From assembly GCA_026415435.1 (NCBI GenBank), contig JAOAHC010000040.1, positions 137,456-201,455 on the forward strand: a stretch of DNA of 64,000 nt, written 5' to 3'. Shown one piece after another: positions 4,978 to 46,859 of this stretch. The notes under the pieces were generated by a model, which made no database searches, was not told the origin of the DNA, and saw nothing but the letters and a program-made list of their open reading frames with translations. A program made the position numbers and the translations under genes. Position 1 is the stretch's first letter, and each line of letters begins with the position of its first letter. This DNA is from Clostridia bacterium (GTDB taxonomy: Bacteria > Bacillota > Clostridia > TANB77 > CAG-465).

Positions 4978-7641
4978 TTATAAAGTTTCACCTACTACTA
5001 AAACCGGTCTAAAACTTAAATAGTTAAATGCTGCTCCTGATGAAGCTCCAAAAGTAAATATTCCCGATGCACTAGTTAGATCGTATCCTCCACCTCTTAT
5101 GAAGAATGGAGTATTTGTATATGGTATTGTAGTTTGATCTAAATACCAAGCTGAATCACTTGCAGATCCGTCCTGAGAAGTTTCATAAATAGCGTCTCCT
5201 TTTTTATTTATAGTACCAACATAATTATTTGTATAGTCATCAGTTGTACCTTTATCATAAATATCCTTGTACTTTACATCCGCATTTACAAGATTACTAC
5301 CGTTATTATTTAAATTTGCATTTTGATTATTTATATATGCTGCTGTACACTCCCATGCACCACCACTCATATCATATATTCCATATATATTTCCAGTAGT
5401 AGAAGCATTTATTCCATTTGTTACATCTGTATATGCATAAGTAGTAATGGTGGAAGATGCACTTACAGTAGTACCCGCATTACCTGTTAAATAGTTACTG
5501 TTTGGATTTATCCACACTTCAGCATTTTTACCATATTTACTTTGAGCAAGATAACTTACAGCTCCCCATTCTGTATTCTTCATAAGATGGGTATCTATTC
5601 CTTGACCAGTAGTTCCCCAGCCATACTTGTTATTTGTTTCCATATTTCTACTTGCTGTAAACATTTGAGAAACACTTAAATTTCTTAGTGAACTCACACC
5701 TGGTTTTATATCTAAAGAATCTACAGTTCCACTTACTTCAAACTTTGCTACCCAAATACCAGTAAGTTCTACACTACCAAATTTGAATGCTGGATGTGAT
5801 GTCCATTTATTATTTGATGCATTAGAAGAAGTTCCTACATCTATACTTGAAATAATACTACTATTCCAATTATCATTAGTTCCTTGACTAAATTGCACGT
5901 CTACAACTCCACCTTGTGAAGAATTAGTATGCCACAAACTTGAAATCTTATATATATATCTTGGTATCCAAACCCACATCGATCCATCGGCACTTTGTGC
6001 GTTTGCCCATACTTTATTTTTATAATCATACCATGAAGTATCTGTACTTGGACTTGCTACAGTATCCCAAGCACTTGTAGTTGTGTTCCACTTCTTAGCC
6101 GTAAGACCAGAAACTAATACTGGTGTATTTGAAACTTCATAATCACTTAGATTTTCATTTATTACGAAGATTTTTGTCTCTATCTTTCTTAGTGCAACTG
6201 TACTATTATTATCTGTAACCTCGATTTTATAGTATATTTTACTAGCGTTTACATTATCATAATTTATCTGTCTTGATGTTGTAAGAGAATCTGAATTTAC
6301 AGAAATTATTTGTTCATTTATGTATGTTAAACCATCTAAACTATATGATGATTTTATTTGACTTACTCCTCTTGTACTATATACATTAGTAGTTGAATTA
6401 AATTTTTCTTTTGTTGCACTATTTATGATATTTGATATATTAATAATAGGCTGTACACGAACTCCTTGTAAAATATAGTTGCCTGCCTTGTCAAATACCG
6501 CAATAGAAACCTGATTTACGTTTTTAGGAATGTTAATACTTACAGTATTTGATTCTATATTCTTTAAAACTTTACTTTTTTGTTTCATATATTCAATATC
6601 AAAACTGCTAATATCTTTATAGTAGTTTTGTTCTGTACCATTATCATCTATTCTAGTTAGATAATCATATCTTATCTGATTTACACCACTAGCATTATCA
6701 GCAATATCAAATGTTACAACATTCATATTTGTGTAGCTAGAAGTTAATATATTTGTAACATCTGGATGAGTAAGATCAAGTTTAGTTAGATCTATCCTTA
6801 CCTTACCAATATCACTACTATCTTTTTTCTTTATTATATCCATATACTTTTTATTTTCTAATATATCTGTTATAGCAAATGTAGCAGTATCAGTTAAAAT
6901 ACTATTTGGTGCAAATAAATCAGTTACATTAAAACTTTTTTCATATTCTCCACTTGATGTAATCATTTGTTTTTGAACACCATCAGATATAGATATATAC
7001 ATTGTTTCGTTTGAATCCAAAGTAGTTTTTACTATAAGTGACATTTTACTTGTCCAATCTTTTTGTTTTGTTACATTAATGCCTGAAGAAGAAATGACTT
7101 CGGTTTGTGAACCATCAGGTATACCAAGATTTTGATCTACTTTAACAATATTAGATATTTTAGGACTTATTGAAAAGTATACTGTTGATTTTGCATAAAA
7201 TCCTTTTAGATAATATACGTTCATAGATGGATATGCAATAACAAAAACATCATCTTGACCATCTGTGCCCCTACCGTAAGAAGTACTTTGTACATTTATT
7301 TTACTTAAATCTATTTTGTAATATTCATTCACACTACCATCATTGTTTTGATCAACTTCTGATAAAAATTCACTTTCTACATTATCAGCAACTAATCCAA
7401 TGACTTGATTTTTTGTAAGTGGTTCACTATTTTCATCTGATGTTGGAAACTTTCCATTTGAAATATAGTAAGCTTCACTTGCATCCTCCACTTGTTTTAT
7501 ACTCTCCGCCATTTTAGTTATTGTAGCGTTATCAATAGAATTCTTAGTTGAAATTACCGTTACTGATATTAGTATTAAAGCTACAACTATTGTTATCATT
7601 AGAACTATAAATGAGATACCTTTTTTATTCATAATTTTCAT
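4978..7641 (-). CDS. Large secreted/surface protein: pilin-like N-terminal signal-anchor (MKIMNKKG-ISFIVLMITIVVALIL) + Ig-like region + C-terminal FGE-sulfatase-like (SUMF1-fold) domain
   Basis: 887 aa. The N-terminus resembles a class III (prepilin) signal but lacks Glu+5. The C-terminal region carries GIWVAKFEV, THLMKNTEWGAVSYLAQSKYG (compare RLPTEAEWEYAARGG) and NIYGIYDMSGGAWEC (compare GLYDMSGNVWEW). It is paralogous to the 7673..8947 and 41547..46229 products. Confidence 0.5.
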   Translation of the reverse strand: MKIMNKKGISFIVLMITIVVALILISVTVISTKNSIDNATITKMAESIKQVEDASEAYYISNGKFPTSDENSEPLTKNQVIGLVADNVESEFLSEVDQNNDGSVNEYYKIDLSKINVQSTSYGRGTDGQDDVFVIAYPSMNVYYLKGFYAKSTVYFSISPKISNIVKVDQNLGIPDGSQTEVISSSGINVTKQKDWTSKMSLIVKTTLDSNETMYISISDGVQKQMITSSGEYEKSFNVTDLFAPNSILTDTATFAITDILENKKYMDIIKKKDSSDIGKVRIDLTKLDLTHPDVTNILTSSYTNMNVVTFDIADNASGVNQIRYDYLTRIDDNGTEQNYYKDISSFDIEYMKQKSKVLKNIESNTVSINIPKNVNQVSIAVFDKAGNYILQGVRVQPIINISNIINSATKEKFNSTTNVYSTRGVSQIKSSYSLDGLTYINEQIISVNSDSLTTSRQINYDNVNASKIYYKIEVTDNNSTVALRKIETKIFVINENLSDYEVSNTPVLVSGLTAKKWNTTTSAWDTVASPSTDTSWYDYKNKVWANAQSADGSMWVWIPRYIYKISSLWHTNSSQGGVVDVQFSQGTNDNWNSSIISSIDVGTSSNASNNKWTSHPAFKFGSVELTGIWVAKFEVSGTVDSLDIKPGVSSLRNLSVSQMFTASRNMETNNKYGWGTTGQGIDTHLMKNTEWGAVSYLAQSKYGKNAEVWINPNSNYLTGNAGTTVSASSTITTYAYTDVTNGINASTTGNIYGIYDMSGGAWECTAAYINNQNANLNNNGSNLVNADVKYKDIYDKGTTDDYTNNYVGTINKKGDAIYETSQDGSASDSAWYLDQTTIPYTNTPFFIRGGGYDLTSASGIFTFGASSGAAFNYLSFRPVLVVGETL

Positions 7642-7672: not shown

Positions 7673-8947
7673 TTAATACACCTCAAAACCATCTATTTTT
7701 GTCCAGTTTCCGGAATTATCACTTATTAATACAGAAATACTTTTTATATTTTTAGGTAAATCTATACTATATACACCTTCGGAAATATAACTTGCAACTT
7801 TCCCATACTCGTTTAAATATTCTTTATCCAAACTAGATACATTATTATAGTATGGTAATTCTCCCGAACCAGATTCGTTTGATTTAGTTAAATAATCATA
7901 CTTAATACTTTTTATATTACTGCTATCATCCGAAACTATAAATTTTACTGTGTTTTTATCACTACTACTAACAATATCAGAATCACTTAAAACTGGAGGA
8001 GTATTATCATAGTTTACCAAATCAGATTTTATAGTCTGTTTAGTTATCCCACCATTTTTTATAATTATGGTAATATATCTTTTTGTGTATTCTACATTAT
8101 TAAATGCAGCAATTTCTTCACTAGTAAATGGAGAAATAAGTATATCATTTCCTTGACTATCTTTATTATCACTAAGTAAACTAGACAAATTGAAATTTCT
8201 TATATTATTTCCTTCTTGCATACCAAATACTTCTTTTTCTGTCTGCACACCACTAAGCATTATATATACTTTCTCTGAAGAAACCAAACTTGCTTCAAAC
8301 TTAATAGGCATAGTATTTGTCCAACTATTAGCCAATTTTAAAATTGACAAATTGGCAGTTTTGTTTTGTATATTTTGATTATTTTCTATCTTTACACTTT
8401 GAGCTATATTTAACTTATTACTAAGTGAAAAATACACATTATTTTGTACGTTTAATCCCAATAAATAGTATACTTTCATAGATGGATATGATACTACATA
8501 TACATCATTTTGTCCTAGTGTTTTTGCACCTGCAACAGTAGTTTTAATATTAATTTTACCTAAATCTATTTCATAAAAAGTTCCTAAATTTGAATCATCA
8601 TAATAATCTCCATTTGAAGATAACTCATAAATAAAATTATTTCTATATCTTGAATCAACCATATTTGTAACTTGCGATTGATTTAAACTACTACTTGATG
8701 AATCAGGAACAGGAAAAGTACCATGATTTATATAAAATTCGTTAGTTAAATCTTGTATTTTTGAAAGATCCGTAGCAAAACTTGTTAAAGTAGCTTGGGC
8801 TATACTTGATCTTGTTTGAATTATAGCTGCTGTTATGAGGATAATTGCAGCTATTATTGTAATTATTAAAACTACAAGTGAAACTCCTTTTTTTGAGTTT
8901 TTGATGTTTATATTAAAATCTATATATCTAAAATTAACTATTCTCAC
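7673..8947 (-). CDS. Pilin-like N-terminal signal-anchor protein, a shorter paralog of the 887-aa protein (shared N-terminal and Ig-like regions, no FGE domain)
   Basis: 424 aa, GTG start with an AAGGTGA RBS. KKG-VSLVVLIITII hydrophobic segment. The YEIDLGKINIKTT...GQNDVYVVSYPSMKVYYL and IKYDYLTK...DLPKNIKSISVLISDNSGN blocks align with the 887-aa protein. Confidence 0.5.
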   Translation of the reverse strand: MRIVNFRYIDFNINIKNSKKGVSLVVLIITIIAAIILITAAIIQTRSSIAQATLTSFATDLSKIQDLTNEFYINHGTFPVPDSSSSSLNQSQVTNMVDSRYRNNFIYELSSNGDYYDDSNLGTFYEIDLGKINIKTTVAGAKTLGQNDVYVVSYPSMKVYYLLGLNVQNNVYFSLSNKLNIAQSVKIENNQNIQNKTANLSILKLANSWTNTMPIKFEASLVSSEKVYIMLSGVQTEKEVFGMQEGNNIRNFNLSSLLSDNKDSQGNDILISPFTSEEIAAFNNVEYTKRYITIIIKNGGITKQTIKSDLVNYDNTPPVLSDSDIVSSSDKNTVKFIVSDDSSNIKSIKYDYLTKSNESGSGELPYYNNVSSLDKEYLNEYGKVASYISEGVYSIDLPKNIKSISVLISDNSGNWTKIDGFEVY

Positions 8948-10806: not shown

Positions 10807-11184
10807 CTATTGAGTTTTTAGATTAGTTTTTCTGTTTATAAAAATAATTAATAGGATTATGACTACAGACATAGATGAAATTAAAAATATTATAACCATA
10901 TACTTTGTTTCTACAGCTTTATTTTCTTTCCTTAATTCTTCTGCATCATTTTTCGCGTAATACAGTTTTGAAAGTAAAACTGCGCCCTCAGCTGTACTGG
11001 CATAAAGTTTTAATCTTTCTTCATTAATCCCTTCATTTTTTAAAACTTCCGAATAGTACTTATTTTTCGTTTTATCATAACCAATGAACTCTGCTTTACA
11101 TGTAGAATTGAAGAAATTGAGTATAAACGCCACCAAAACAAACATAATAATTACCCGTGAACAAAAATTAATTAATTTTTTCAT
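10807..11184 (-). CDS. Hypothetical membrane protein (N-terminal signal/TM and C-terminal TM)
   Basis: 125 aa with two hydrophobic segments. No recognisable motif. Confidence 0.4.
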   Translation of the reverse strand: MKKLINFCSRVIIMFVLVAFILNFFNSTCKAEFIGYDKTKNKYYSEVLKNEGINEERLKLYASTAEGAVLLSKLYYAKNDAEELRKENKAVETKYMVIIFLISSMSVVIILLIIFINRKTNLKTQ

Positions 11185-11418
11185 ATATAATCCCCCTAAA
11201 TTTTTATTAGACTTAATATTAATATGAATATATTAATATTATACCATATTATGTCAACATAATCAATATATTCGACAAGAATAACAAGTTAAAAGCATAA
11301 ATACAACAAATATAACATTTTTTACACTTTTTTAATATATTTTGTTGAAATTTTTTTTAATATATAATAAAATACAAATAACAAATACTAAGTATATAAT
11401 TACAACGTACAAAAGATT

Positions 11419-13833
11419 ATGGAGGAAACTATGAAGTTTAAAAAATTAGACTACACTGATTTAAAAAACAAATGCGATAATACTGAACTTAATTTCAGTA
11501 AAACTACTGAACTAGAACCATTTTGCGGTATAATTGGTCAGGAAAGAGCTCTTAGGGCTATAAAAACTGCGGTTGATATAAAAGAAAAAGGATTTAATTT
11601 ATATGTTAGTGGTAACATAGGTATTGGTAAAACTGCCTATGTACTTTCTGTTGTAAATAGTATAGCTCAAAATGAAAAAGTACCTAATGATTACTGCTAT
11701 ATATATAATTTCGATAATCCTAATGAACCAATATCAATATCTTTAGAACCAGGTATGGGAATTGAATTTAAATTTGATATGAATAGATTTATAACAAAAC
11801 TTATGGAACGCCTTCAAAAGGATCTAAGTGGCGATACCTATGAAAAAGAAAAGAAAAATATTAATGATAGATACTCAAAATCTAAAGAAAAAATAATGAA
11901 AGATTTTGATAGATATACAACTGAACAAGGTTTCAAAATAAGAAACACTGAAAATGGTATCTACTTCTCTCCTATATATAATGGTGTTATATTAAATGAA
12001 CAAGAATTTAGTATTTTAGATGAAAAAATAAAAAAACAATTTGAAGAAAAAAGTCCTAAAATACAAGAACAAACTTTAGAAATTTTAAAAAGAATTGATA
12101 TTATAGATAAAGAATGTGCTAATGTTATAACTGAGTGGCAAACAAACTTGGTTACTTTTGCAGTTACTCAATGTATGAGTGATCTGAAACTGAAATATAA
12201 AAACAATTTAAAGATCCAAAACTTCCTATACTCTATCCAAAGTGATGTTGTAAAAAATATAGAATATTTTAAACAATATCAAGAAAGTTTAAAAAATCCT
12301 CAAGGACAACAAGCTCAATATATTGCTCAAAGAGCTGATGCAAAACCTTGGGAGAACTATAGAGTTAATTTGATTATTGACAATGATAAACTTGAACATG
12401 CTCCTGTAATCATATGCAAAAATCCAAACTATTTTGATCTTTTTGGAAAACTTGAATTTGAAAGTTCAGTTACAGGTATGCGTACAAATTATACAATGTT
12501 AAAACCAGGCCTTTTACATAAAGCAAACGGTGGTTATATAATTATAAATATTGCTGACTTACTTGTAAGTATGCCTACATGGGAAGCTTTTAAAAGAGTT
12601 CTAAGAAATCAAGAATTGACTATTGATAGTTCTAGAGATCTTTCTCAACCTGTGACTATAATGTCACTTAAGCCAGAACCTATCCCACTTAATGTTGAGG
12701 TTATTTTGATTGGATCTGAATTAAACTATCAACAATTATGTAATTTAGACGTTACCTTTAAAAAGATGTTTAAAATAAAAGCAGATTTTGATGATACTTA
12801 TGAAAGAACACCTGAAAACACTATGAAACTTGCAAGATATATTGCATATATATGTAAAAAATATAATCTTCTTGCTTTTAATTGTTCAGCTGTTGCAGAA
12901 ATAATAGAATATAGTTCTAGATGTTCAAATGACAAAAACAAGCTTACAGCTATTATGCAAGACATCATCGATGTTATAATTGAGTCTAATAGTGTTGCAA
13001 AAAATCTTAATAAAAAAATAGTAAGTTCAAATGAAGTTGAAGCTGCTCTTAAAGCAAGAAGCAAAAGATATTCAAAATATGGTGATAATTTAAAAAATAT
13101 GATTACTGATGGTACAATAATGATATCTACCGATGGAGAAAAAATTGGACAGATTAATGGTCTTACAATTATATCTAATGGTGATTTAACATTTGGTATG
13201 CCAGTGAGAATTACTGCAAATACATTTATAGGTAAAAGTGGAATTTTAAATATAGAAAGAGAAGTTTTAATGAGTGGTACATCTCACTCTAAAGGTGTAT
13301 TTATCTTATCAGCATATATAGGAGAAAAATATGCACAAGACATACCTTTATCTTTAACAGCAAGTATTTGTTTTGAGCAATTATATAATGGTGTTGATGG
13401 TGATAGTGCTTCATCTACAGAACTATATGCAATACTATCTAGCCTATCTTCTACTCCTATAAAACAAAATTTAGCTGTTACTGGATCAGTTAACCAAAAA
13501 GGTGAAATACAGCCTATTGGTGGTGTATCTGATAAAATAGAAGGTTTCTTCAAAATATGTAAAGAGCATGGTTTAGATGGAACTCATGGTGTATTGATAC
13601 CACATCAAAATGTTAAAAATCTAAATTTAGATAATGAAATAGTTGAAGCAGTAAAAAATAACTTATTTAGCATCTACCCTGTTTCTACAATTGATGAAGG
13701 TATAGAAATACTAACTGGAGTGAAATCTGGTAAATTATTAAAAGATGGTAATTATGAAAAAGGAAGTATAAACTTCTTAGTAAGTGAAAAACTAAAAAAA
13801 TATGCTGAGAAAAGCTTGAATTTTAAACAATAA
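11419..13833 (+). CDS. Lon-like AAA+ ATP-dependent protease (COG1067 / LonB-LonC-like)
   Basis: 804 aa. Walker A SGNIGIGKTAY. The C-terminal Lon protease domain has DGDSASS (catalytic Ser) and IGGVSDKIEG (catalytic Lys). Confidence 0.6.
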   Translation: MEETMKFKKLDYTDLKNKCDNTELNFSKTTELEPFCGIIGQERALRAIKTAVDIKEKGFNLYVSGNIGIGKTAYVLSVVNSIAQNEKVPNDYCYIYNFDNPNEPISISLEPGMGIEFKFDMNRFITKLMERLQKDLSGDTYEKEKKNINDRYSKSKEKIMKDFDRYTTEQGFKIRNTENGIYFSPIYNGVILNEQEFSILDEKIKKQFEEKSPKIQEQTLEILKRIDIIDKECANVITEWQTNLVTFAVTQCMSDLKLKYKNNLKIQNFLYSIQSDVVKNIEYFKQYQESLKNPQGQQAQYIAQRADAKPWENYRVNLIIDNDKLEHAPVIICKNPNYFDLFGKLEFESSVTGMRTNYTMLKPGLLHKANGGYIIINIADLLVSMPTWEAFKRVLRNQELTIDSSRDLSQPVTIMSLKPEPIPLNVEVILIGSELNYQQLCNLDVTFKKMFKIKADFDDTYERTPENTMKLARYIAYICKKYNLLAFNCSAVAEIIEYSSRCSNDKNKLTAIMQDIIDVIIESNSVAKNLNKKIVSSNEVEAALKARSKRYSKYGDNLKNMITDGTIMISTDGEKIGQINGLTIISNGDLTFGMPVRITANTFIGKSGILNIEREVLMSGTSHSKGVFILSAYIGEKYAQDIPLSLTASICFEQLYNGVDGDSASSTELYAILSSLSSTPIKQNLAVTGSVNQKGEIQPIGGVSDKIEGFFKICKEHGLDGTHGVLIPHQNVKNLNLDNEIVEAVKNNLFSIYPVSTIDEGIEILTGVKSGKLLKDGNYEKGSINFLVSEKLKKYAEKSLNFKQ

Positions 13834-15963: not shown

Positions 15964-18021
15964 TTATTTTCTTCTTAATGCCTCTATCGGATCCATTCTT
16001 GCTGCTTTAACTGATGGTATCATACCAGCAAATAAAGCTAAGAAAGCACATACTAAAACTAATATTATAGCAATTACAGGGTCTAATACTGCAACCTTAA
16101 CACTATCAATTTGCATTCCACTGCTCTTAATTAACATAGATACCGCATAATTTATTATCTCACACATACCATAAGATACTGCTACTCCTATAATCCCCGA
16201 AAACAGTCCAATTATTGCTGATTCAGATAAAAATATATTACGTATATCTTTTCTTCTTGCACCAATTGCTCTTAATATTCCTATTTCTGATATTCTTTCT
16301 AACACTGATATAAATATTACTATACCAATCATAAGAATAGCAACTATAACTGATATACTTGAAAATCCAATTAATACATTTCTTACTGTATCCATAAATA
16401 CCTGCACACCATCTAATATAGTATCTGCAGATCCTTTAAATTCATATTTTGTTTGACTTGAATTTAGGTTATTTATTGTATCTTTTATTTGTGTATTTGA
16501 TAAATTAGATTTCAGATATAAATAAGCCCTCACGTACTTCATATCTTCTTTTTTTGTCTCAGTTAAATCTGCATAAAGTTGATTTATTTGATCTGAAGTC
16601 TGGTATATTGAATTTCCCATAGTATTTATTGATGTAATACCTACTATTTTAAAAGTGACTATTCTATTTTTATCGCTGTCTCTACCAACATACATATTTG
16701 GTCCATACTTTACATATAGATTCTTACCTACTAAGCTTTTTATATTTTCATCATTACTACCCTCACCAAGTAAAGTTTGAGCTGTATTTAAAGATATTAC
16801 TATTTCTTCTGTATTTTCAGGTTTTCTACCAGATGTCAAACTATTATTTATATTTTCGTATGGTTCAGGACCATTAAGTAACATAAATGATTCATCCTCA
16901 AAGTCTGCAGATTTAGCATTATCTTCATTTAAAGAAACCTCACTAAAAAAATCTTGCATTGCTGAGGCAGGAACTGGCCAAAAATGGCTTATATTACTAT
17001 TTAACTTTTTTATATTTTCTAAATCATTATAGGTATATTCCGGTAAACTTTTCGGATTTAAACCTATATTTATAGCATCTTTGTTGCTGCTAGATTTTAA
17101 ATCTATAGTTACCATATTAACTGGCATTATACTTTCTACTTGATCTCTCACTATCTTAGTACTACCATTACTTAATGCAAATGCAAGTGCAATACCCACT
17201 ATTCCAATTGACATACCAATTGATGTAGCAATTGTTCTTGCTTTTTTAGTCCAAAGACTTTTAAGTGAATGCGTAAATGCTGTCATATATGACATAACTG
17301 ATCTTGTATACTTTTTTTCCTGTTCATCTTTATTCACTAGCTCTGTCTTATTTTCTATATTTATTATTTTACCATCTTCCATGCTTATAACGGTATCAGC
17401 AAATTCTTCTGCTAAAGCTTCGCTGTGAGTTATAACTATAACTAGTTTATCTTTTGAAAGTTCTTTTAATTTAACCATAACTTCATGGCCAATTCTAGTG
17501 TCTAGAGCTCCAGTTGGTTCGTCTGCAAGTATTATATCTGGATCATTTGCTAAGGCTCTTGCAATAGCAATTCTTTGTTTTTGTCCTCCCGATAATACAT
17601 TTACTTTTCTTTTTGCAAACCTCTCCATTTCAACCATTTTAAGAAGTGAATATATCTTATCTTTTTTATCCTTTATGTTAGATAAGCTAAGTGCCAATTT
17701 AACATTATCGTATGCAGTAAACTTATTAATTAGATAAAATTGTTGAAATATAAATCCAATAGTATTTTTTCTATAGCTATCTAAATCTTTTGATTTTGCT
17801 TCTTTTAAAGATTTACCATTAATTAAGACATCACCTTCAAAATCAAAATCTAACGCTCCTATTAAATTCATTAATGTAGTCTTTCCACTACCAGATGGCC
17901 CTAAAATACATACAAGTCCTGAATTTCCAAGTTCAAATTGTACATTTTCCAGAGCTGTAAAGCTCTCATTTTTCATCTTATATATCTTTGATTTTATATC
18001 TACTTTTAGCATATCTACCAC
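15964..18021 (-). CDS. Fused ABC transporter ATP-binding protein / FtsX-family permease (MacB-type)
   Basis: 685 aa. N-terminal NBD (GPSGSGKTTLMN, LSGGQKQRIAIARAL, ILADEPTGALD). C-terminal half has a large extracytoplasmic loop and FtsX-like TM helices. Confidence 0.75.
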   Translation of the reverse strand: MVDMLKVDIKSKIYKMKNESFTALENVQFELGNSGLVCILGPSGSGKTTLMNLIGALDFDFEGDVLINGKSLKEAKSKDLDSYRKNTIGFIFQQFYLINKFTAYDNVKLALSLSNIKDKKDKIYSLLKMVEMERFAKRKVNVLSGGQKQRIAIARALANDPDIILADEPTGALDTRIGHEVMVKLKELSKDKLVIVITHSEALAEEFADTVISMEDGKIINIENKTELVNKDEQEKKYTRSVMSYMTAFTHSLKSLWTKKARTIATSIGMSIGIVGIALAFALSNGSTKIVRDQVESIMPVNMVTIDLKSSSNKDAINIGLNPKSLPEYTYNDLENIKKLNSNISHFWPVPASAMQDFFSEVSLNEDNAKSADFEDESFMLLNGPEPYENINNSLTSGRKPENTEEIVISLNTAQTLLGEGSNDENIKSLVGKNLYVKYGPNMYVGRDSDKNRIVTFKIVGITSINTMGNSIYQTSDQINQLYADLTETKKEDMKYVRAYLYLKSNLSNTQIKDTINNLNSSQTKYEFKGSADTILDGVQVFMDTVRNVLIGFSSISVIVAILMIGIVIFISVLERISEIGILRAIGARRKDIRNIFLSESAIIGLFSGIIGVAVSYGMCEIINYAVSMLIKSSGMQIDSVKVAVLDPVIAIILVLVCAFLALFAGMIPSVKAARMDPIEALRRK

Positions 18022-18023
18022 CC

Positions 18024-20123
18024 CTATTCATCCCTTAATGCATCTATTACATGCATTTTTGTTGCCTTTTTAGATGGCAAATATCCTGCTATGAAAGTTA
18101 TAAGAGCACTAAATAATATTATTGAAATTAAAGTTGCAAATGGAAAGCTTAAATTAGTAAATGGTATTCTTGATATAGGTATACTAACTATACCTGGTAA
18201 ATCTAGGTTAAGATATTTTGATATCAAAATCTCAATAATTGGTGCAAGTACGAAAGCAACTATTACACCAAGTATTCCAGAAAATACTCCCATTAAAATA
18301 GCCTCACACTCAAATATTCTTATTACATCCTTATTTCTTCCACCAACTGCTTTTATTATCCCTATTTCAGTTTTTCTCTCAACTATGCTTGAATATAGTA
18401 CTATAGCAGTCATAATTGATGAGACTATTAAAGCAACTATAATGAAAATACTTATTACTATTTGTGCCATTAATATAAGCTGAGCAAATATTGTTTTTAA
18501 TGAAATAGCCATATTTTTTGCACTATAACCGTTTTTTTCATTACCACCTTGAGAGTCAAAACTAACTTTAGTTCCAGAACCACCATTTTCTTTATTATTT
18601 ATATAATCAGCTACCTCTTTATTATCTTTAACATTTGATAAAATAAGCTCATACCCACCCTTATTTTGAGTAAAATAATCATAAGCTGTTTTATTCTCTA
18701 AATTTACACCTTTAAGCCAACTTACTACATAATCATAATTATAGTATAGATTAGCCATGCTCAAATCTAGTTCATTTATTATACCTGATACTATAAATTC
18801 TTTGTTAATATCCAAAGTTTCTCCTGTACTACTGGTATAATTAAGTATAATATTTACAGTTTTGCCAATTGCAAGTTTTGTGTCTTTACTTGATATATCA
18901 TTTTTTTCAAGAATACTTCTTGCAAGAGCCTGATTAACTAATACTTCATTTTTATCTATTGCTGGTAATTTACCATCAATATTTTCTATTAAAAAATCAG
19001 TGTTTTTTTCATCTGCAAGTGAACTAATACTAGAATCAGATTCAGCATTATTTATTTTAATAACAGCATTAGAAAGACCCATATGAGATCTCGTTTTTGA
19101 TATTTTTTCTTTTATTTCTTCACTATTAAAAATATTAGTATAATCATTTATATTTGTTGATGTAACTACACCTGAATCTTTACTTTTAACATTCTTTTGA
19201 ACTACTAATACATTTGCAGATCCAAATTTATTTAATTGTTTATCAATATATATATTAGCTCCATTACCAAGTCCCATTATTAAAGCAAATCCTGCTATAC
19301 CTATACATCCAGCTATTGTAGTGATAGCTACACGCCATTTCTTCTTGCTCATATTTCTAAGTGATAATTTAAAAGCTTCGTAAAATGACATACTTTTATC
19401 TTTTTTAGATAGAGTTGATTTATCTTTATTAGTACTAACTTCAAGTAAATTAGTATCACTCTCTATCTGCCCATCTCTTACTTTTATAATTCTACTAGAA
19501 TATTCGTTAGCAAGTTTATCATTATGTGTAACCATAATAATAAGTTTATCACTAGCAATACTTTTTAGTAACTCCATTATTTGTTTTCCAGTATTCTTAT
19601 CAAGAGCCCCAGTTGGTTCATCTGCAAGAATTATATCTGGATCATTAGCTAAAGCTCTTGCAATAGCAACTCTTTGCTTTTGTCCACCAGATAATTCTGA
19701 TGGCTTATGATTACTATGATTTTCTAACCCAACTTTTTTTAATAATTCCTTTGCTCTAGTACGTCTTTCATTAAGACTTAGTCCTATTAAATTCATCACA
19801 ATTTCTACGTTTTCTAAAGCAGTCAAATGCTCAATTAAGTTGAAATTTTGAAAGACAAATCCTATATTATTTTTTCTATATAAATCCCAATCTTTTTTCT
19901 TGAATTCTTTTGAACTCACATTTCCTATAACTAATTTACCAGATGAAGGTACATCTAGCCCTGCAATTATATTAAGTAATGTAGACTTTCCACTTCCAGA
20001 GGGTCCTACTATTGAAACAAATTCTCCCTTTTCAAAAGAAATATTTACATCATTTAAAGCGTAGAACTCAACACCTTTTTCAATTTTAAATACTTTGTTT
20101 ATGTTCTCTAATTTTAATAACAT
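18024..20123 (-). CDS. Fused ABC transporter ATP-binding protein / FtsX-family permease (MacB-type), paralog of the downstream gene
   Basis: 699 aa with the same architecture (GPSGSGKSTLLN, LSGGQKQRVAIARAL). 2-nt gap to its partner gene, so probably a heterodimeric pair. Confidence 0.75.
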   Translation of the reverse strand: MLLKLENINKVFKIEKGVEFYALNDVNISFEKGEFVSIVGPSGSGKSTLLNIIAGLDVPSSGKLVIGNVSSKEFKKKDWDLYRKNNIGFVFQNFNLIEHLTALENVEIVMNLIGLSLNERRTRAKELLKKVGLENHSNHKPSELSGGQKQRVAIARALANDPDIILADEPTGALDKNTGKQIMELLKSIASDKLIIMVTHNDKLANEYSSRIIKVRDGQIESDTNLLEVSTNKDKSTLSKKDKSMSFYEAFKLSLRNMSKKKWRVAITTIAGCIGIAGFALIMGLGNGANIYIDKQLNKFGSANVLVVQKNVKSKDSGVVTSTNINDYTNIFNSEEIKEKISKTRSHMGLSNAVIKINNAESDSSISSLADEKNTDFLIENIDGKLPAIDKNEVLVNQALARSILEKNDISSKDTKLAIGKTVNIILNYTSSTGETLDINKEFIVSGIINELDLSMANLYYNYDYVVSWLKGVNLENKTAYDYFTQNKGGYELILSNVKDNKEVADYINNKENGGSGTKVSFDSQGGNEKNGYSAKNMAISLKTIFAQLILMAQIVISIFIIVALIVSSIMTAIVLYSSIVERKTEIGIIKAVGGRNKDVIRIFECEAILMGVFSGILGVIVAFVLAPIIEILISKYLNLDLPGIVSIPISRIPFTNLSFPFATLISIILFSALITFIAGYLPSKKATKMHVIDALRDE

Positions 20124-41546: not shown

Positions 41547-44500
41547 TTACATATACATTTTAATCCTTATATAATCCATATAAACTCTTTTGTTAGCTAC
41601 ATAAGCCCATATTCCAAAATTTTGACTACTAGGTAATGTTGTTATATAACCACTAGTAAGTAAACTGCCATTTTTGTATAGCTCATATGCTTTACTTTTA
41701 TATAAAACAAATCTCCATGTATTATCACCAGATACGAAGTTTCCATTTGAATAAAATGTAGTAATTGTACTTCCATTCATAATATTTAGTGTATCCGCAT
41801 AATCTCTGTGATAATTAATGCTAAATAATCCAAAATTTATATCTGATCTATAATTAGTTCCGTAAGATGCAGAATTAAAATGAAATGATACCTCTACTCT
41901 ATCATAAGTATTGTTATATCCCCAAGTCCTATTATATGTACAAGTAAAATTAGAAGTCCCTGCTGTATGTGTCCAGTAAGTACCAGAATATATACTACCC
42001 TTATCAAAATTATTTACAGTCATTTCATCAATAAGTGCTTCAACAACAACCTGTGTAATTGTCGCACCAGATGTTGTAATTGTAGTATAATATCCATTAT
42101 TATCGTAAATATATATATTTGTTGAATATATACCATATTCATTATTATGATCTGATCTGTTTACCCTATAATACCATGTGCCATTTCCTAAATTTTGACC
42201 ACTAGCAATAGGATTTGTTGACCAATTAGATTGTATGTCATCTTGACCATTATTGTTAGTCCATGTTGGAAATTGAACTCTATTAATTCCACTTGCTGAA
42301 TCAGCTATTCCATATACATATACATCATATCCATCTTCAGTTACATTATTTATAATGTAACTTGTATATGTAGGAGCAGTCGTATCTCTATTTACACTTA
42401 CCATACTTGAATTTGGGCCTATATTACCAGCATTATCAATTGCTCTTATCCAGATATTTCTTTGTCCATCCGTATTTATTACCCATGGACTTGTCACATC
42501 TATCCATCCACTTGTTCCATTTAATGAATATTGATATTTTTGTATACCTGACTGACTATCTGTAGTACTAAATGTAAGTGTTACGTTACTTGATGTCCAT
42601 GATCCACTAGTATAGCCATTTAAATTTACTGTAGGAACTCCTGGGGAAGTCCTATCTATGTTAGTTACAGTTAAAGTAGAAGCTTCACTTGTATTCCCTG
42701 ATGAATCTTTTCCTCTTGCATAGACCGTTGTATTATTTGTTGTAACTACTACTGGTGTTGTATAATTACTCCATGTTGTCCCATTCAAACTATATTCTTT
42801 TACCGTTACATCAGATGGATATGTTATTGTAACTGTTACATTTCCACTAGTCCATCCTGTTGGATTTGCTAACATTATTGGATTATCTGGTGCTGTCACA
42901 TCTTTTTCAAATAGATTAGAATGTGTTATTACCTCGTTTCCTGCTTTATCTTTTCCCTTTATCCATAAATATTGTGACATATTTTCATTACTTGTTAGAG
43001 TTGCTCCATTTGTAAATGTTATCCATCCACTTGTAGGCTCAGTTTCACTTGCAGTCCATATATACTGTAATGATGTATTATCTATTCCACTTCCTCCTAC
43101 ATCTGATACTGTTACCTTTGAACTTAATGATTTGTCAAATCCACCGTTTGGTGAAAATGTTATTGTTGGACTTGCATTATCTATTGCAAAGGTTGTACTG
43201 CTCCTTAAATCATTTCTATTTCCAGATGAATCTTCTATCATTCCTTTTTGTATTTCTATTTTAACTCCAGATATATTTCTTGTAACTTCACTTTCTACCG
43301 TTAAATCCACATACCATTTATGAATATTATTTGGATCCATTCTTACTGTTTTTAATATTTCACTATCCGATATTATTATTGAACCAGTTTTAACTAATAT
43401 ATTTTCTAATATATTTTCTTCTGTTATTATTGTATCATTTAATTCATTTGAATTATCTGTAAATGTTAAACTATATGTAACTATATCTCCAGCCTTTGCA
43501 TAAGTTTTACTTGGCTGTGATATTGTTATTCCAGGTTTTGTTGTATCATACATTACTTCTAAGTAATCTGTATTTGAATCTGTGCTTGATGGTCCCTTAC
43601 TGCAATATGCTTTAAATTTTGTTGTTCTAGTCACATTGGTTATGCTGTAATAATATATCCCGGTATTTTCATCTCTAAGCATATTTATATCATTTTTAGC
43701 TACTAATGTCCATGTTGCTGGTTCTGCTGTTCCTGTCCATCTTTTATAATACATATATTCTGATTCTTTTGGGTATGATATTACTACTTTTTCTCCCACT
43801 CTTAATGTTACACCATTATTCTCATATTCAGGAAAGTCTATATCTGTACCATATGGATTATCTGACCCCATTCCTTCTTCTACTATTCTTGATGTTATAT
43901 ATATACTTGGATCAGTTACTCTGTCTGGCATTGCTTCTATATCTTCTTTTATTGTTAGAACCGGTCTAAAACCTACGCCACCAGATCCATACCCTGAATA
44001 ACTCCTATATGAGTACATTCCTATCCTTGCATTTTGAGATGTACCAGGTCTTAATCCTCCTCTTAGTATAAATGGTGCTGAGTTTTGTGGATACACACTA
44101 TAGTCACCATACCAGCTACTATATGAATTTACATTTGTATTTAATATTTTATATAACGATGCTCCACTGGTATTATATACACCTTTATCTGCTAAACTTG
44201 ATAACAACTCATAGTTTTGACTTGATATATTTTGTCTTACAGTCGCATTAGGTAATTTTGCTGAATTATCTTTATCCAATTGTGACGAAGGATATTTATC
44301 AAAGTATTTATCTAATCCACTATATACTCCACCTGTATATTTTATATATCTATGATTATTGTTAACATATGAAGCGACCATTTCTTCTGATCCTCCTGCC
44401 ATATCATAAATTCCATATACATTTTTTGTTGTACTTGCATTTACTCCATATTTTGTATTATCATACGCAAATGTAGTTGTATTTAAAGCTGCACCGTACG

Positions 44501-46229
44501 TTGGTGTTGCTGTCTTTCCTGAATAACCTGTTCTCAAATAGTAATTATTATTTATCCATACTTCTTCGCCATTTCTTCCATATTTACTTTGTGTTAAATA
44601 TTCTATTGCATCCCACTCTCTGTTTTTTATCAAATGAGTATCAATGCTTATTCCGTCCGTTCCAAATCCATATTTACTATCTGTTTTCATATTTATACAA
44701 TAGTTAAAAGCATCTTTTAATGCTATAAGTCTCCAGCTTCCAACTCCTGGTTTTACTTGTATTCTATATTTTGTCTTATTATTTGCATCTTTATATGTAG
44801 CTCTGCTCGCCTCAAACTTCGCTACCCATATACCTTGTAACTGAAGTTTCTCCCCTTCTTTTGGTTCTACTTCAAACGCTGATGCTAAAGTGTATCCTGT
44901 TGGTGCATCTGCACTTCCTTGTATGAATTTTATATCTACTACTCCAGCACTACTACTATGTGTCCCACTTGTTATCTTATATGCAAACCTTGGTATCCAT
45001 ACCCACATACTTCCGTCACTACTTTGCGCATTTGCCCAATACTGTGATTCTGTCTTATATGAGTACCATGATTTATCTAGATTAGTTACTTCTATCCATT
45101 GATTCCCTGTCCACTCTACTGGTTTTAATATTTTTTCTGTGCTGTTTTCACCTTTTGTAAGCAGTGGCTCATTTCCTTCATTTCCACTATCCCATTTAGC
45201 ATTTATATCTATATATGGTTCATCTCCTATTGTTATTATCTCTATTGTTGCCTCTGACTGTCCATATGTATTTATCGCCTTTGCATATATTGTTCCATTC
45301 GTATTTACCACAAATGGTGAACTATACGATGAATATGTTTCTCCATCAAAACTATATTGTACTACATCTGCATTTCTTGTATTTATTGTTACTGTAACAT
45401 TTCCAGAGGGCTTATTCGCTATAGTTTGTTCTGGATTTGTTACTATAGATATATCTGGTTCCTTCTTTATATTTACTATATCTAATTGATCTGTAACTTC
45501 TCCTGCTGCATTTAAAGCTCTTCCATATACTACTCCATTATCATATACCTTGAAACTACCTTGATACAAGCTATATGTTTCTCCATCTAAGCTATACTCT
45601 ACTTTATTCGCATTATTTGCTGTTAACTTTACATTTACTTCTGTTGTAGATCCAGCCTCTTCTTCTTGAGCTGGTGTTGCTTCCATTTGTAGTGTAGGTA
45701 ATACTTCCTCCCTTGCTACTTCTGTTCCTCCGTATACACTATACCATCTTTTATTTCCTATATCTTGTCCTTGCTCATAAAATATTTTACCCGTATCCAT
45801 ATCTTGTATTATACTTGCACTTTTTGTTATATATCCACCCTCAGTTGTAGGCCCACTATTTATATTTAATTCCAAATCAGATAGCTTTACGTAGTATAAT
45901 TTACCTTGTTTGGTATCTATAGTTGTACTTAACACTTGCTCCATATGTGTTATTAGATCAGCTGATAATGTTGATATATCAACTATTCCCGCTTCTCCTT
46001 TATCCGTATCTATAGGATTTATATTATTATCTTGATTGTTTGCATATTTACTTGTTTTATATAAATTTATAGCTTGCTCTATACTATTCATATCATTCAT
46101 AAATCTTGCTTTTGATGCAGATTCTCCTATACCATTTGATGCAGTAAGTATTACAGCTGTAGCTATTATAACTATAACTATTATCGTTATTATTAAAGTT
46201 ATTAGTGATATTCCTCTTATATTTTTCAT
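41547..46229 (-). CDS. Giant multidomain secreted/surface protein: pilin-like N-terminal signal-anchor + CHB_HEX_C-like repeats + FGE-sulfatase-like domain + Ig-like repeats + GBS Bsp-like repeat + C-terminal concanavalin/LamG-like lectin domain
   Basis: 1560 aa. MKNIRG-ISLITLIITIIVIVII N-terminus. Tandem ~75-aa repeats (VEYSLDGETYSLY / VQYSFDGETYSSY). The WANAQSSDGSMWVWIPRFAYKI block and FGE motifs (GIWVAKFEA, THLIKNREWDAIEYLTQSKYG, NVYGIYDMAGG) are shared with the 887-aa protein. FPTWTNNNGQDDIQ...YGIY...IYIYDNNG matches the Bsp-like repeat. C-terminal lectin-like beta-sandwich. Confidence 0.5.
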   Translation of the reverse strand: MKNIRGISLITLIITIIVIVIIATAVILTASNGIGESASKARFMNDMNSIEQAINLYKTSKYANNQDNNINPIDTDKGEAGIVDISTLSADLITHMEQVLSTTIDTKQGKLYYVKLSDLELNINSGPTTEGGYITKSASIIQDMDTGKIFYEQGQDIGNKRWYSVYGGTEVAREEVLPTLQMEATPAQEEEAGSTTEVNVKLTANNANKVEYSLDGETYSLYQGSFKVYDNGVVYGRALNAAGEVTDQLDIVNIKKEPDISIVTNPEQTIANKPSGNVTVTINTRNADVVQYSFDGETYSSYSSPFVVNTNGTIYAKAINTYGQSEATIEIITIGDEPYIDINAKWDSGNEGNEPLLTKGENSTEKILKPVEWTGNQWIEVTNLDKSWYSYKTESQYWANAQSSDGSMWVWIPRFAYKITSGTHSSSAGVVDIKFIQGSADAPTGYTLASAFEVEPKEGEKLQLQGIWVAKFEASRATYKDANNKTKYRIQVKPGVGSWRLIALKDAFNYCINMKTDSKYGFGTDGISIDTHLIKNREWDAIEYLTQSKYGRNGEEVWINNNYYLRTGYSGKTATPTYGAALNTTTFAYDNTKYGVNASTTKNVYGIYDMAGGSEEMVASYVNNNHRYIKYTGGVYSGLDKYFDKYPSSQLDKDNSAKLPNATVRQNISSQNYELLSSLADKGVYNTSGASLYKILNTNVNSYSSWYGDYSVYPQNSAPFILRGGLRPGTSQNARIGMYSYRSYSGYGSGGVGFRPVLTIKEDIEAMPDRVTDPSIYITSRIVEEGMGSDNPYGTDIDFPEYENNGVTLRVGEKVVISYPKESEYMYYKRWTGTAEPATWTLVAKNDINMLRDENTGIYYYSITNVTRTTKFKAYCSKGPSSTDSNTDYLEVMYDTTKPGITISQPSKTYAKAGDIVTYSLTFTDNSNELNDTIITEENILENILVKTGSIIISDSEILKTVRMDPNNIHKWYVDLTVESEVTRNISGVKIEIQKGMIEDSSGNRNDLRSSTTFAIDNASPTITFSPNGGFDKSLSSKVTVSDVGGSGIDNTSLQYIWTASETEPTSGWITFTNGATLTSNENMSQYLWIKGKDKAGNEVITHSNLFEKDVTAPDNPIMLANPTGWTSGNVTVTITYPSDVTVKEYSLNGTTWSNYTTPVVVTTNNTTVYARGKDSSGNTSEASTLTVTNIDRTSPGVPTVNLNGYTSGSWTSSNVTLTFSTTDSQSGIQKYQYSLNGTSGWIDVTSPWVINTDGQRNIWIRAIDNAGNIGPNSSMVSVNRDTTAPTYTSYIINNVTEDGYDVYVYGIADSASGINRVQFPTWTNNNGQDDIQSNWSTNPIASGQNLGNGTWYYRVNRSDHNNEYGIYSTNIYIYDNNGYYTTITTSGATITQVVVEALIDEMTVNNFDKGSIYSGTYWTHTAGTSNFTCTYNRTWGYNNTYDRVEVSFHFNSASYGTNYRSDINFGLFSINYHRDYADTLNIMNGSTITTFYSNGNFVSGDNTWRFVLYKSKAYELYKNGSLLTSGYITTLPSSQNFGIWAYVANKRVYMDYIRIKMYM

Positions 46230-46448: not shown

Positions 46449-46859
46449 TTAATTTCTTACAAAAATCCAAGAATCCTGCTTATGTTTTTCCATAGGCATA
46501 CGAGTTATATTAATTCTTGCTAATTTTTCATTTTCAATACTTTTCCATATAAAATCTAATATAAAAGTACCGAATATTAAAAACTCGATTTTCTCTTTTT
46601 TAGTAATACAAGATACTAAATAAAGTGTACATGAATCCTTTAATATGCCTTCACCTATATGTTCTTTTATTGCATTTTTCCAAATTTCATGTGTTATTAT
46701 TTCAAAAAAGGAATTCTTATTAAAAATAACAATATTAATATTTTTCTTTCTTTCTCCTATTGCAACAAATTCATCAACTTTTTTTCTTGTCTTGCTCCTT
46801 TTCCATAGCATGTCTACTCCCCCTAAAGTCTTATTTTGGAAATTAATATAGTTGTACAC
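46449..46859 (-). CDS. Hypothetical protein (136 aa)
   Basis: Open frame between the CDP-alcohol transferase gene and a terminator. No motif recognised. Confidence 0.35.
   Translation of the reverse strand: MYNYINFQNKTLGGVDMLWKRSKTRKKVDEFVAIGERKKNINIVIFNKNSFFEIITHEIWKNAIKEHIGEGILKDSCTLYLVSCITKKEKIEFLIFGTFILDFIWKSIENEKLARINITRMPMEKHKQDSWIFVRN

Follow-up and report, generated by a model that had tools for sequence, protein, structure and literature searches.

The window analysed here is a stretch of 64,000 nt (contig JAOAHC010000040.1, positions 137,456 to 201,455, forward strand) from a Clostridia bacterium (assembly GCA_026415435.1). On its minus strand lie two large genes for proteins of 1560 and 887 aa, which share a domain resembling formylglycine-generating enzyme (FGE), and a smaller pilin-like gene next to the latter. 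Positions refer to the window unless a homolog locus is named. Loci and proteins of our homolog collection carry the prefixes L and P.

41547 to 46229, minus strand: 1560-aa gene, open reading frame (ORF) with matches to NF047446 (E 5e-28) and PF08481 (E 1.4e-10); its product is identical to collection protein P0308.
43950 to 45077, minus strand: predicted FGE-subtype C-type-lectin domain of the 1560-aa protein (aa 385-760), from the family alignment and an AlphaFold2 (AF2) model.
4978 to 7641, minus strand: 887-aa gene, ORF, hypothetical protein N2749_03915 at NCBI (metagenome-assembled genome, MAG, Clostridia bacterium), with syntenic orthologs in L083 and L084.
4993 to 6042, minus strand: predicted FGE-subtype C-type-lectin domain of the 887-aa protein (aa 534-883), from the family alignment and 38% identity to the 1560-aa domain.
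7673 to 8947, minus strand: 424-aa pilin-like gene, a paralog of the N-terminal half of the 887-aa gene without lectin domain; conserved partner gene.

The 887-aa protein consists of a pilin-like N-terminus, an immunoglobulin (Ig)-like middle region and a C-terminal lectin domain. The deposited N2749_03915 starts three residues after the start of the ORF. In the 1560-aa protein a pilin-like N-terminus is followed by Ig-like repeats, an internal FGE-like C-type-lectin domain, three OmpL47-type barrels and a GBS_Bsp-like repeat. The internal position of the lectin domain is atypical, as the family norm is C-terminal. The part past it (41547-43949) comprises ~800 aa with the beta-barrels matched by NF047446, the Bsp-like repeat matched by PF08481 and an unassigned C-terminal region of ~170 aa. 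BLASTP aligns the shared domain of the two proteins over ~410 residues at 38% identity (E 4e-64). This similarity is well outside chance, and by sequence the two domains are clear paralogs. The 424-aa protein is 42% identical to the 887-aa protein across the first 180 aa, and a gene of 403-421 aa takes its position in the syntenic loci L083 and L084. Genes of the 424-aa type and of the 887-aa type are thus a conserved pair.

A preliminary description of this DNA, made from the letters alone, had quoted three scaffold motifs and a 22-residue block. All of them were found in both genes, with a single exception in one residue. GIWVAKFE lies at 44811-44834 in the 1560-aa gene and at 5737-5760 in the 887-aa gene, YGIYDM.GG at 44391-44417 and 5359-5385, and.EW.A..YL.QSKYG at 44577-44621 and 5530-5574, the first residue of the latter motif being R instead of T in the 1560-aa protein. 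The block follows the pattern WANAQS[SA]DGSMWVWIPR[FY].YKI with 19 of 22 residues identical in both genes and is located at 5944-6009 in the 887-aa gene. In the 1560-aa gene it is the following feature.

44973 to 45038, minus strand: 22-residue block of the 1560-aa protein, WANAQSSDGSMWVWIPRFAYKI; invariant in the family columns and modelled as strands.

The block had been taken for a separate unit in front of the domain. This does not hold. In the AF2 model it forms strands 16-18, 24-29 and 31-37 with a predicted local distance difference test score (pLDDT) >90, and it is the most conserved stretch in the family. A grafted separate unit is ruled out, since the block makes up the first and most conserved beta-strands of the domain itself. 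The intervals originally given for the two domains (44012-45092 and about 5094-5964) likewise need correction, as they cut through the RGG...FRP loop described below in one gene and just miss it in the other.

The proposed FGE-type fold is borne out. PF03781 (FGE-sulfatase) does not appear in whole-protein Pfam/NCBIfam scans of the window proteins. For the isolated domains it is the top Pfam match, with E 0.005 and 16.9 bits (1560-aa protein) and E 0.015 and 15.5 bits (887-aa protein), both below the Pfam gathering score of 23.3 bits. It is also the only Pfam match that recurs for the domain; 30 of 62 relatives match individually at E≤0.01 (best 2.8e-6). The AF2 model of the 1560-aa domain, built from the 62-sequence family alignment, reached a pLDDT of 82.9 and a predicted template modelling score of 0.89. 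When this model was compared with the PDB using Foldseek, TaqVP (5vf4) was retrieved with E 2.4e-9 and probability 1.0 and PorK (9myj_B) with E 1e-3; beyond these two there was no significant match, and FGE itself was absent among the matches. Among the predicted viral structures of BFVD the matches were a phage SUMF-like domain protein, tail-collar fibres and tail fibres (E 2.4e-9 to 1e-4).

Comparisons at the sequence level are fainter. A profile of the domain only, run against PDB sequences, matched solely TaqVP and SUMF2 (E 0.14 and 0.26), and phmmer with the single domain against the PDB gave chance matches only. HHalign assigned the family profile a probability of 27% against SUMF1 alone and of 65% against a profile of 15 vertebrate FGEs, the alignment being trustworthy only across GN.YG.YDM.GG.WE.; the database search with SUMF1 had returned vertebrate orthologs only, which added little diversity to that profile. 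Extended HHalign alignments at low mact were visibly wrong and were discarded. As modelled, the window domain stands as an FGE-subtype C-type-lectin fold, but as a distant branch of it.

PvdO and NirV had been put forward as comparators. The best comparators are instead variable proteins of diversity-generating retroelements (DGRs), namely TaqVP of Thermus aquaticus (PDB 5VF4), which is closest to the window domain by structure and by PDB sequence profile, and TvpA of Treponema denticola (2Y3C). Both share with it an FGE-type lectin core with large inserts and missing catalytic residues, and in both the C-terminal 30-45 residues form a variable ligand-binding surface that ends in an invariant ...FRP/FR. 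strand. In contrast, identity to the window domain is only 14-15%. Moreover TaqVP and TvpA are single-domain proteins, TvpA being a lipoprotein, whereas the window proteins are fused to a pilin-like N-terminus and long stalks. Among DGR targets, lectin domains of the FGE-sulfatase type make up the largest category, and TvpA is devoid of FGE activity (PMC5758913). PorK/GldK and PvdO resemble the window domain by an FGE-like fold without FGE chemistry, and PorK as well as PvdO were retrieved from the PDB by a SUMF1 query. However, PorK, a ring lipoprotein of the type IX secretion system, and PvdO, a periplasmic pyoverdine-maturation factor, have neither a hypervariable C-terminal loop nor a pilin N-terminus nor a link to DGRs.

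The position of the cysteines was evaluated by alignment to human SUMF1 (sequence of PDB 1Y1E, identical over 286 residues). The relevant features of the window domains are:

5347 to 5349, minus strand: codon of C765, the Cys of 'WEC' and sole Cys of the 887-aa protein; aligns to SUMF1 W301.
44391 to 44417, minus strand: YGIYDMAGG, followed by SEEM, of the 1560-aa protein; equivalent to SUMF1 Y289-W301, the GN.WEW scaffold.
43962 to 44063, minus strand: loop of the 1560-aa protein equivalent to the DGR variable region (VR) and to the FGE active site (aa 723-756), RGGLRPGTSQNARIGMYSYRSYSGYGSGGVGFRP; no Cys.
5005 to 5097, minus strand: VR-equivalent loop of the 887-aa protein (aa 849-879), RGGGYDLTSASGIFTFGASSGAAFNYLSFRP; no Cys, codons not of the NNY type (N, any nucleotide; Y, C or T).

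HMMER and HHalign consistently place NVYGIYDMAGGSEEMVASY of the 1560-aa protein and ..GGAWEC.. of the 887-aa protein on SUMF1 N287-W305 (NGYGLYNIVGNAWEWTSDW). The scaffold motifs are shared with SUMF1 and bacterial FGEs, GN.YG.YDM.GG.WE. being confidently aligned to SUMF1 287-301. The preliminary description had seen one Cys (WEC) in the 887-aa protein and none in the 1560-aa protein in what it took for the segment of the two active-site cysteines. The residues were read correctly (C765 and SEEM, respectively), but the segment is a different one, as 'WEC' falls on the SUMF1 scaffold motif W299-E300-W301 with C765 at the position of W301. The structural counterpart of the FGE active site, i.e. 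the SUMF1 segment with Ser333, Cys336 and Cys341, is the C-terminal RGG...FRP loop. Superposition puts these three residues of human FGE onto the variable region at the C-terminus of TaqVP (PMC6328139); Cys336 and Cys341 bind Cu (PMC4505483, PMC6676471).

The lack of a catalytic Cys pair could be verified for both domains. The 887-aa protein as a whole contains C765 as its only Cys, and the single Cys of the 1560-aa domain is C511, in the scaffold motif FNYCINM; neither is inside the active-site-equivalent loop. The structural disulfide cysteines of SUMF1 and FGE are missing as well, and the loop is hypervariable in the family. FGE catalysis is excluded for both window domains as far as their residues tell, because the Cu-binding Cys pair is missing from the RGG...FRP loops. 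The suggested mapping of the Ca2+ sites was likewise carried out with SUMF1. D and E aligned with SUMF1 N293 and E300 (D609 and E616 in the 1560-aa protein; columns D225 and E232) are invariant in the family. We take this pair to be equivalent to ligands of the second structural Ca2+ of FGE, and a structural Ca2+ site may be retained in the window domains.

The same D...E motif and the sub-threshold PF03781 matches might still speak for an enzymatic role within the FGE/EgtB/OvsA superfamily, with the domain oxidising a surface substrate in the manner of a formylglycine-generating enzyme or a sulfoxide synthase. We consider this highly improbable. Apart from the lacking Cys pair, the active-site-equivalent loop is the least conserved part in the family, contrary to what a catalytic site would show. 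The Pfam scan detected no DinB-like domain of the kind present in EgtB and OvsA, and the nearest structures (TaqVP, PorK and phage fibres) are non-catalytic.

Variation within the family is concentrated at this very loop. Column entropy peaks in the last ~45 residues of the domain, with a maximum at columns 319-343 of the hidden Markov model (HMM), hence the RGG...FRP loop is the hypervariable region of the family. In the peak columns only 2.2% of the residues are outside the set of 15 amino acids reachable from AAY codons, compared to 13% in other variable columns. This restriction pointed to DGRs.

Two homolog loci provide the direct case. In L035 the 3' end of the gene (10917-11065) is the VR of a template repeat (TR) at 11224-11372; all 17 mismatches between them are at template adenines and none at other bases. 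A reverse transcriptase (RT) adjoins the VR/TR pair (PF00078, E 2.4e-16). In L077 22 of 40 template adenines are altered, which again accounts for all mismatches (22/22, 0 non-A), and an RT is located next to them (E 1.7e-15). Both targets belong to the same HMM family with 37-39% identity to the query domain, and both have pilin-type N-termini (KNKA/FTLVELLAVI... in L077, RQNG/ITLIALVV... in L035; the slash marks the end of the leader here and below). L035 and L077 thus combine pilin-type N-terminus, VR, TR and RT, and in at least these two homolog loci the loop is rewritten by adenine-specific mutagenesis.

The codon signature of this process is widespread. We asked whether loop codons end in C or T (NNY), either with all codons or with four-fold-degenerate families only. 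The signature is present at p<0.001 in 39 of 83 homolog genes by the first and in 37 of 85 by the second variant (e.g. L035, 9/11 versus a background of 4%), i.e. ~45% of the sampled homologs carry it. Composition bias as its source was dismissed, as the signal persists in four-fold-degenerate codons. For most signature-bearing homologs no RT is located within 10 kb.

L035 (MGYG-HGUT-04539, CABVAF010000003.1) exhibits a further peculiarity. Its region 11213-12554 contains three tandem units of ~470-500 bp with Asn-rich TR-like copies at 11224, 11725 and 12196, all beside one RT at 12667-13833 on the minus strand. The adenine-only match to the adjacent VR is confined to the first copy, and a search of 80 loci for other targets of TR1-3 returned the adjacent VR alone. 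Possibly this is a DGR with multiple templates for several of the paralogs, of which that genome has 9 or more.

The preliminary description had considered the domains to be binding modules. This is supported: the loop of the homologs is the VR of genuine DGR targets, and phage tail fibres come closest among viral structures. For the family the loop is DGR-variable and hence a ligand-contacting surface. Taken together, we read each window protein as a cell-surface protein of adhesin or receptor type, with a head formed by a divergent C-type-lectin domain of the FGE subtype that falls into the class of DGR variable proteins; the probability of this reading is roughly 0.7. The observations that weigh against this reading concern the head, the present state of its loop and the nature of the carrier. 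As to the head, the binding role of the window domains themselves is inferred from the fold class and from the behaviour of the family.

As to the loop, homologs of the window copies are rewritten, and the copies themselves are seemingly not. Neither an ORF with RT motifs (the sole YADD match is inside an AddA-like helicase) nor a TR-like repeat of 4978-5130 or 43940-44100 was found in the 64-kb window, which is part of a 395-kb source contig; this scope of the search has to be counted on the opposing side. DNA repeats between the 887-aa and 1560-aa genes are only ordinary paralog matches of 70-74%. The 887-aa loop has no NNY signature, with C or T at the third position in 3 of its 14 four-fold codons (background 0.46, p 0.99). 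Its codons include TCA, TCG, TTA, CTA, GGA and GCA, which are not producible by A-only changes to AAY. The 1560-aa loop has a weak excess (7/15 versus a background of 0.20, p 0.017, rank 50 of 87) and contains Gln and Met as well as a 3-residue insertion. In P0344, the ortholog of the 1560-aa protein with 65% identity overall and 69% in the domain, the loop deviates through an indel of 4 residues, through Lys and Trp and through RGW where the 1560-aa loop has RGG. These differences suggest that the 1560-aa lineage alters its loop by ordinary substitutions and indels, i.e. by conventional evolution. In sum, the window copies have the homology and fold with a VR at the C-terminal strand-loop in common with DGR variable proteins, but no TR or RT was found for them in the 64 kb, and neither has a clear NNY signature.

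The perfectly syntenic loci L083 and L084 hold the orthologs nearest to the 887-aa protein (50-56% identity). The shared gene order is MnmA-GGDEF-LonC-RimI-TsaB-TsaE-[~420-aa pilin-like]-[~890-aa]-AddA-laccase-like. The 887-aa locus is vertically inherited, because its synteny between housekeeping genes is kept in L083 and L084. Two findings at this locus also weigh on the opposing side. The L083 and L084 orthologs do bear the NNY signature (20/24 and 19/25 for all codons; p 7e-4 and 1e-4 for four-fold codons), and every residue at the variable positions of the 887-aa loop is compatible with AAY. No RT was found within 10 kb of either ortholog, and these relatives appear to be rewritten in trans.

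Accordingly, one might assume that the window copies are active DGR targets as well, with RT and TR elsewhere in the genome acting in trans on the RGG...FRP loop. They belong to the same family as the proven targets L035 and L077, the NNY-positive syntenic orthologs and the weak excess of the 1560-aa loop point in this direction, and trans action seems common because most signature-bearing homologs have no RT nearby. Nevertheless we regard active targeting as unlikely in view of the missing RT and TR in the 64 kb, the 887-aa codons incompatible with an A-only route, and the Gln, Met and insertion of the 1560-aa loop together with the indel, Lys and Trp of P0344. Because RT and TR are missing within 64 kb and the NNY signature is absent (887-aa) or weak (1560-aa), the window copies are best read as having a fixed loop sequence with a single specificity under conventional evolution. 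The window lineage appears to have ceased loop rewriting, or perhaps never began it.

The carrier was analysed starting from the N-termini:

46140 to 46229, minus strand: class-III-signal-peptide-like N-terminus of the 1560-aa protein, MKNIRG/ISLITLIITIIVIVIIATAVILTA; by sequence, with Thr instead of Glu at +5.
7549 to 7641, minus strand: class-III-signal-peptide-like N-terminus of the 887-aa protein, MKIMNKKG/ISFIVLMITIVVALILISVTVIS; Val at +5, GspG match.

In all three window proteins (MKNIRG/ISLITLIITIIV..., MKIMNKKG/ISFIVLMITIVV... and ..NSKKG/VSLVVLIITIIA... for 1560, 887 and 424 aa, respectively) a short basic leader runs to a Gly followed by ~22 hydrophobic residues, as is characteristic of a class III signal peptide. 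The 424-aa leader reads ..NSKKG/VSLVVLIITI.. and is likewise without Glu5. The pattern of leader and hydrophobic segment occurs in 86 of 143 family proteins, of which 18 have Glu at +5. For the 887-aa protein TIGR01710 (GspG, E 3.5e-7), PRK10574 (E 0.0034) and PF08334 (T2SSG, E 0.0039) were obtained, all under their curated cut-offs, and the family profile matches PilE1 of S. sanguinis and geopilin at E 3-4e-4. The AF2 model of residues 1-180 of this protein consists of a helix of 52 residues (11-62) followed by a small sheet of four short strands (pLDDT 79). The earlier idea of a pilin-like carrier agrees well with the sub-threshold GspG/T2SSG matches, the match to type IV pilins and the long helix, and the label 'pilin-like' is justified for the N-terminus.

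Several observations on the carrier stand on the other side. Glu5 and Phe1 are missing in the three window proteins, which have Ile, Ile and Val at +1 and Thr, Val and Val at +5. The Pfam scan gave no PF07963 match for them; among relatives, 20 of 62 do match it. Foldseek with the N-terminal model gave no significant match (best E 0.79), with pilins and GspG among those listed. The pilus machinery (PilB/C/D) was found neither in the window nor in the orthologous loci L083 and L084. The N-terminus might hence be a mere signal-anchor, so that both proteins would be membrane-tethered adhesins without processing by a peptidase or entry into a filament. All of the above fits this view, and so do the protein sizes of 887-1560 aa, well beyond an ordinary pilin, and the fact that most cellular DGR targets are simply N-terminally membrane-anchored binders (Roux et al., PMC8144416). 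On the other hand, the conserved leader ending in Gly grades within the family into canonical G/FTLVELL prepilin N-termini, the GspG, PilE1 and geopilin matches and the helix with its small sheet are in favour of a pilin module, and it is established that pilins can carry bulky grafted modules (PMC8179133).

The absence of Glu5 in the window proteins would fit a tip subunit, by analogy with tip pseudopilins like GspK, which are without Glu5, too. On balance we rate the plain membrane anchor as a serious alternative whose chances are somewhat short of even, and assembly into a filament as putative only, judging from these N-termini. The binding head is unaffected by this choice. A paper on a 'conserved pilin' of TANB77 was also considered; it is about a Tad-type cluster and has no relation to the proteins described here.

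The modular pilins PilB (with a vWA module) and PilC (with a ConA-like lectin) of S. sanguinis are alike in combining an N-terminal pilin module with a grafted binding module for display at the surface or tip (PMC8179133). The class-III-like leader and the long N-terminal helix are found in the window proteins as well, and relatives of the window proteins have the canonical IPR012902/PF07963 motif. There are several differences. The window proteins are without Glu5, Phe1 and neighbouring pilus genes. They are also far larger with multi-domain stalks, and their incorporation into filaments is only putative. The frequent modular-pilin architectures listed in PMC8179133 do not include an FGE-type lectin, and we came across a VR in a pilin-type domain in a single passing mention, as a scarce oddity (PMC11661182).

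Based on this analysis the following mode of action is proposed. The type IV pilin- or pseudopilin-like N-terminus without Glu5 would insert into the membrane and would probably be cleaved by prepilin peptidase. From there it would hold the protein at the surface, or else set it as a tip subunit on a type IV filament. The Ig-like and barrel domains and the Bsp-like repeat would serve as a stalk or as auxiliary binding modules, and the solvent-exposed RGG...FRP loop would contact an extracellular ligand with fixed specificity.

The family extends far beyond the window. A word-indexed search yielded >5,100 homologs of the domain, nearly all without a name and many with prepilin N-termini. An exhaustive profile search of 1.84 billion representatives resulted in 5,365 clusters (at 50% identity), of which 2,429 are at E≤1e-30. 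In species-representative genomes at least 583 domain copies are present, nearly all in gut and anaerobic-system MAGs of uncultured Clostridia/Bacillota, and a single MAG may hold as many as 9 family loci or more. The family has no dedicated domain model, whole-protein Pfam scans miss it, and we found no description of it in the literature.

A viral origin was also considered, in which the genes would come from a prophage and encode tail-fibre proteins for receptor binding. Tail-collar and tail fibres are indeed the best viral structural matches, and Macadangdang et al. (bioRxiv 2024.11.15.621889) note that cellular Bacillota DGR targets resemble phage receptor-binding modules. However, the neighbours in the window are housekeeping and spore-germination genes (AddA, TsaE/TsaB/RimI, LonC, LysS and the GerA operon) with no phage genes nearby. 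Synteny is kept across species at 41-56% identity, the proteins have a pilin-like N-terminus that is predicted to insert into the membrane, and not a single relative of the domain was found in 2.9 million viral contigs (IMG/VR). The family is cellular, syntenic and multi-copy, which leaves a prophage origin with hardly any probability.

Some members are of unusual build. P0264, P0268 and P0271 are giant proteins of 3,713-4,516 aa with 5-10 tandem copies of the lectin domain; the N-terminus of P0264, KTKG/LSLLVLIITIII, is pilin-like and without Glu5. The widespread '404-aa' homologs (P0079 and >10 further clusters) are split between two frames. In L001 (9742-10010; the same in L002 and L003) the ATG and the basic leader are in one frame and the pilin-like helix (GVTLISLVVTIVVLLILAS...) and the lectin domain in the +1 frame, with A7 and T7 homopolymer tracts between the two. 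Slipped-strand phase variation of a DGR-diversified adhesin is one conceivable reading, a frameshifted OFF state of it another.

Two further observations concern other genes of the window. Directly upstream of the 1560-aa gene there is an ORF of 136 aa (46449-46859, minus strand) with a weak, sub-threshold match to ThsB_TIR-like PF08937 (E 9e-4). At 15964-20123 (minus strand) two adjacent paralogous genes code for fused MacB-type ABC transporters (ABC_tran, MacB_PCD and FtsX; 685 and 699 aa), between which a DNA repeat of 108 nt is 70% identical. Such a transporter pair also adjoins the P0079 homolog in L001-L003, which is probably a coincidence.

Overall, the preliminary description was confirmed in its motifs and not in its Cys segment, and its interpretation is supported in substance. 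The fold and the binding role as such are already known. What is new is a divergent family of pilin-anchored lectin heads of the DGR class, here in a non-diversified state. Its type-IV-pilin-like carrier is not described in the DGR surveys that we consulted, apart from the passing mention above, nor is it a frequent modular-pilin architecture. The type V pilus tip adhesins of Bacteroides are alike in presenting a DGR-rewritten binding surface on a pilus-type adhesin of a gut bacterium (bioRxiv 10.1101/2024.11.15.621889), a concept that the present family displays in L035 and L077. In contrast to the family described here, they are type V (FimA-like) pilins from another phylum with another variable fold family, and the window copies are not diversified.

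Our most far-reaching suggestion is a tentative one, and we hold it to be possible rather than probable: uncultured Clostridia of guts and anaerobic habitats would mount DGR-rewritable lectin heads on type-IV-pilin-like, probably tip, subunits without Glu5, and the window genes would be 'frozen' alleles thereof, their lineage having settled on one specificity while rewriting would go on in the syntenic orthologs. If true, this would be the Firmicute counterpart to the DGR-diversified type V pilus adhesins of Bacteroides, and the frozen alleles would represent a natural experiment on what happens to a DGR-selected binding site once the retroelement stops. Diversified and non-diversified orthologs at one chromosomal locus make a tractable comparison of hypervariable and fixed binding sites. 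For the organism of the window the analysis predicts two adhesins of fixed specificity, and recognising the family assigns a function class, that of a surface binding head, to thousands of proteins of uncultured Clostridia.

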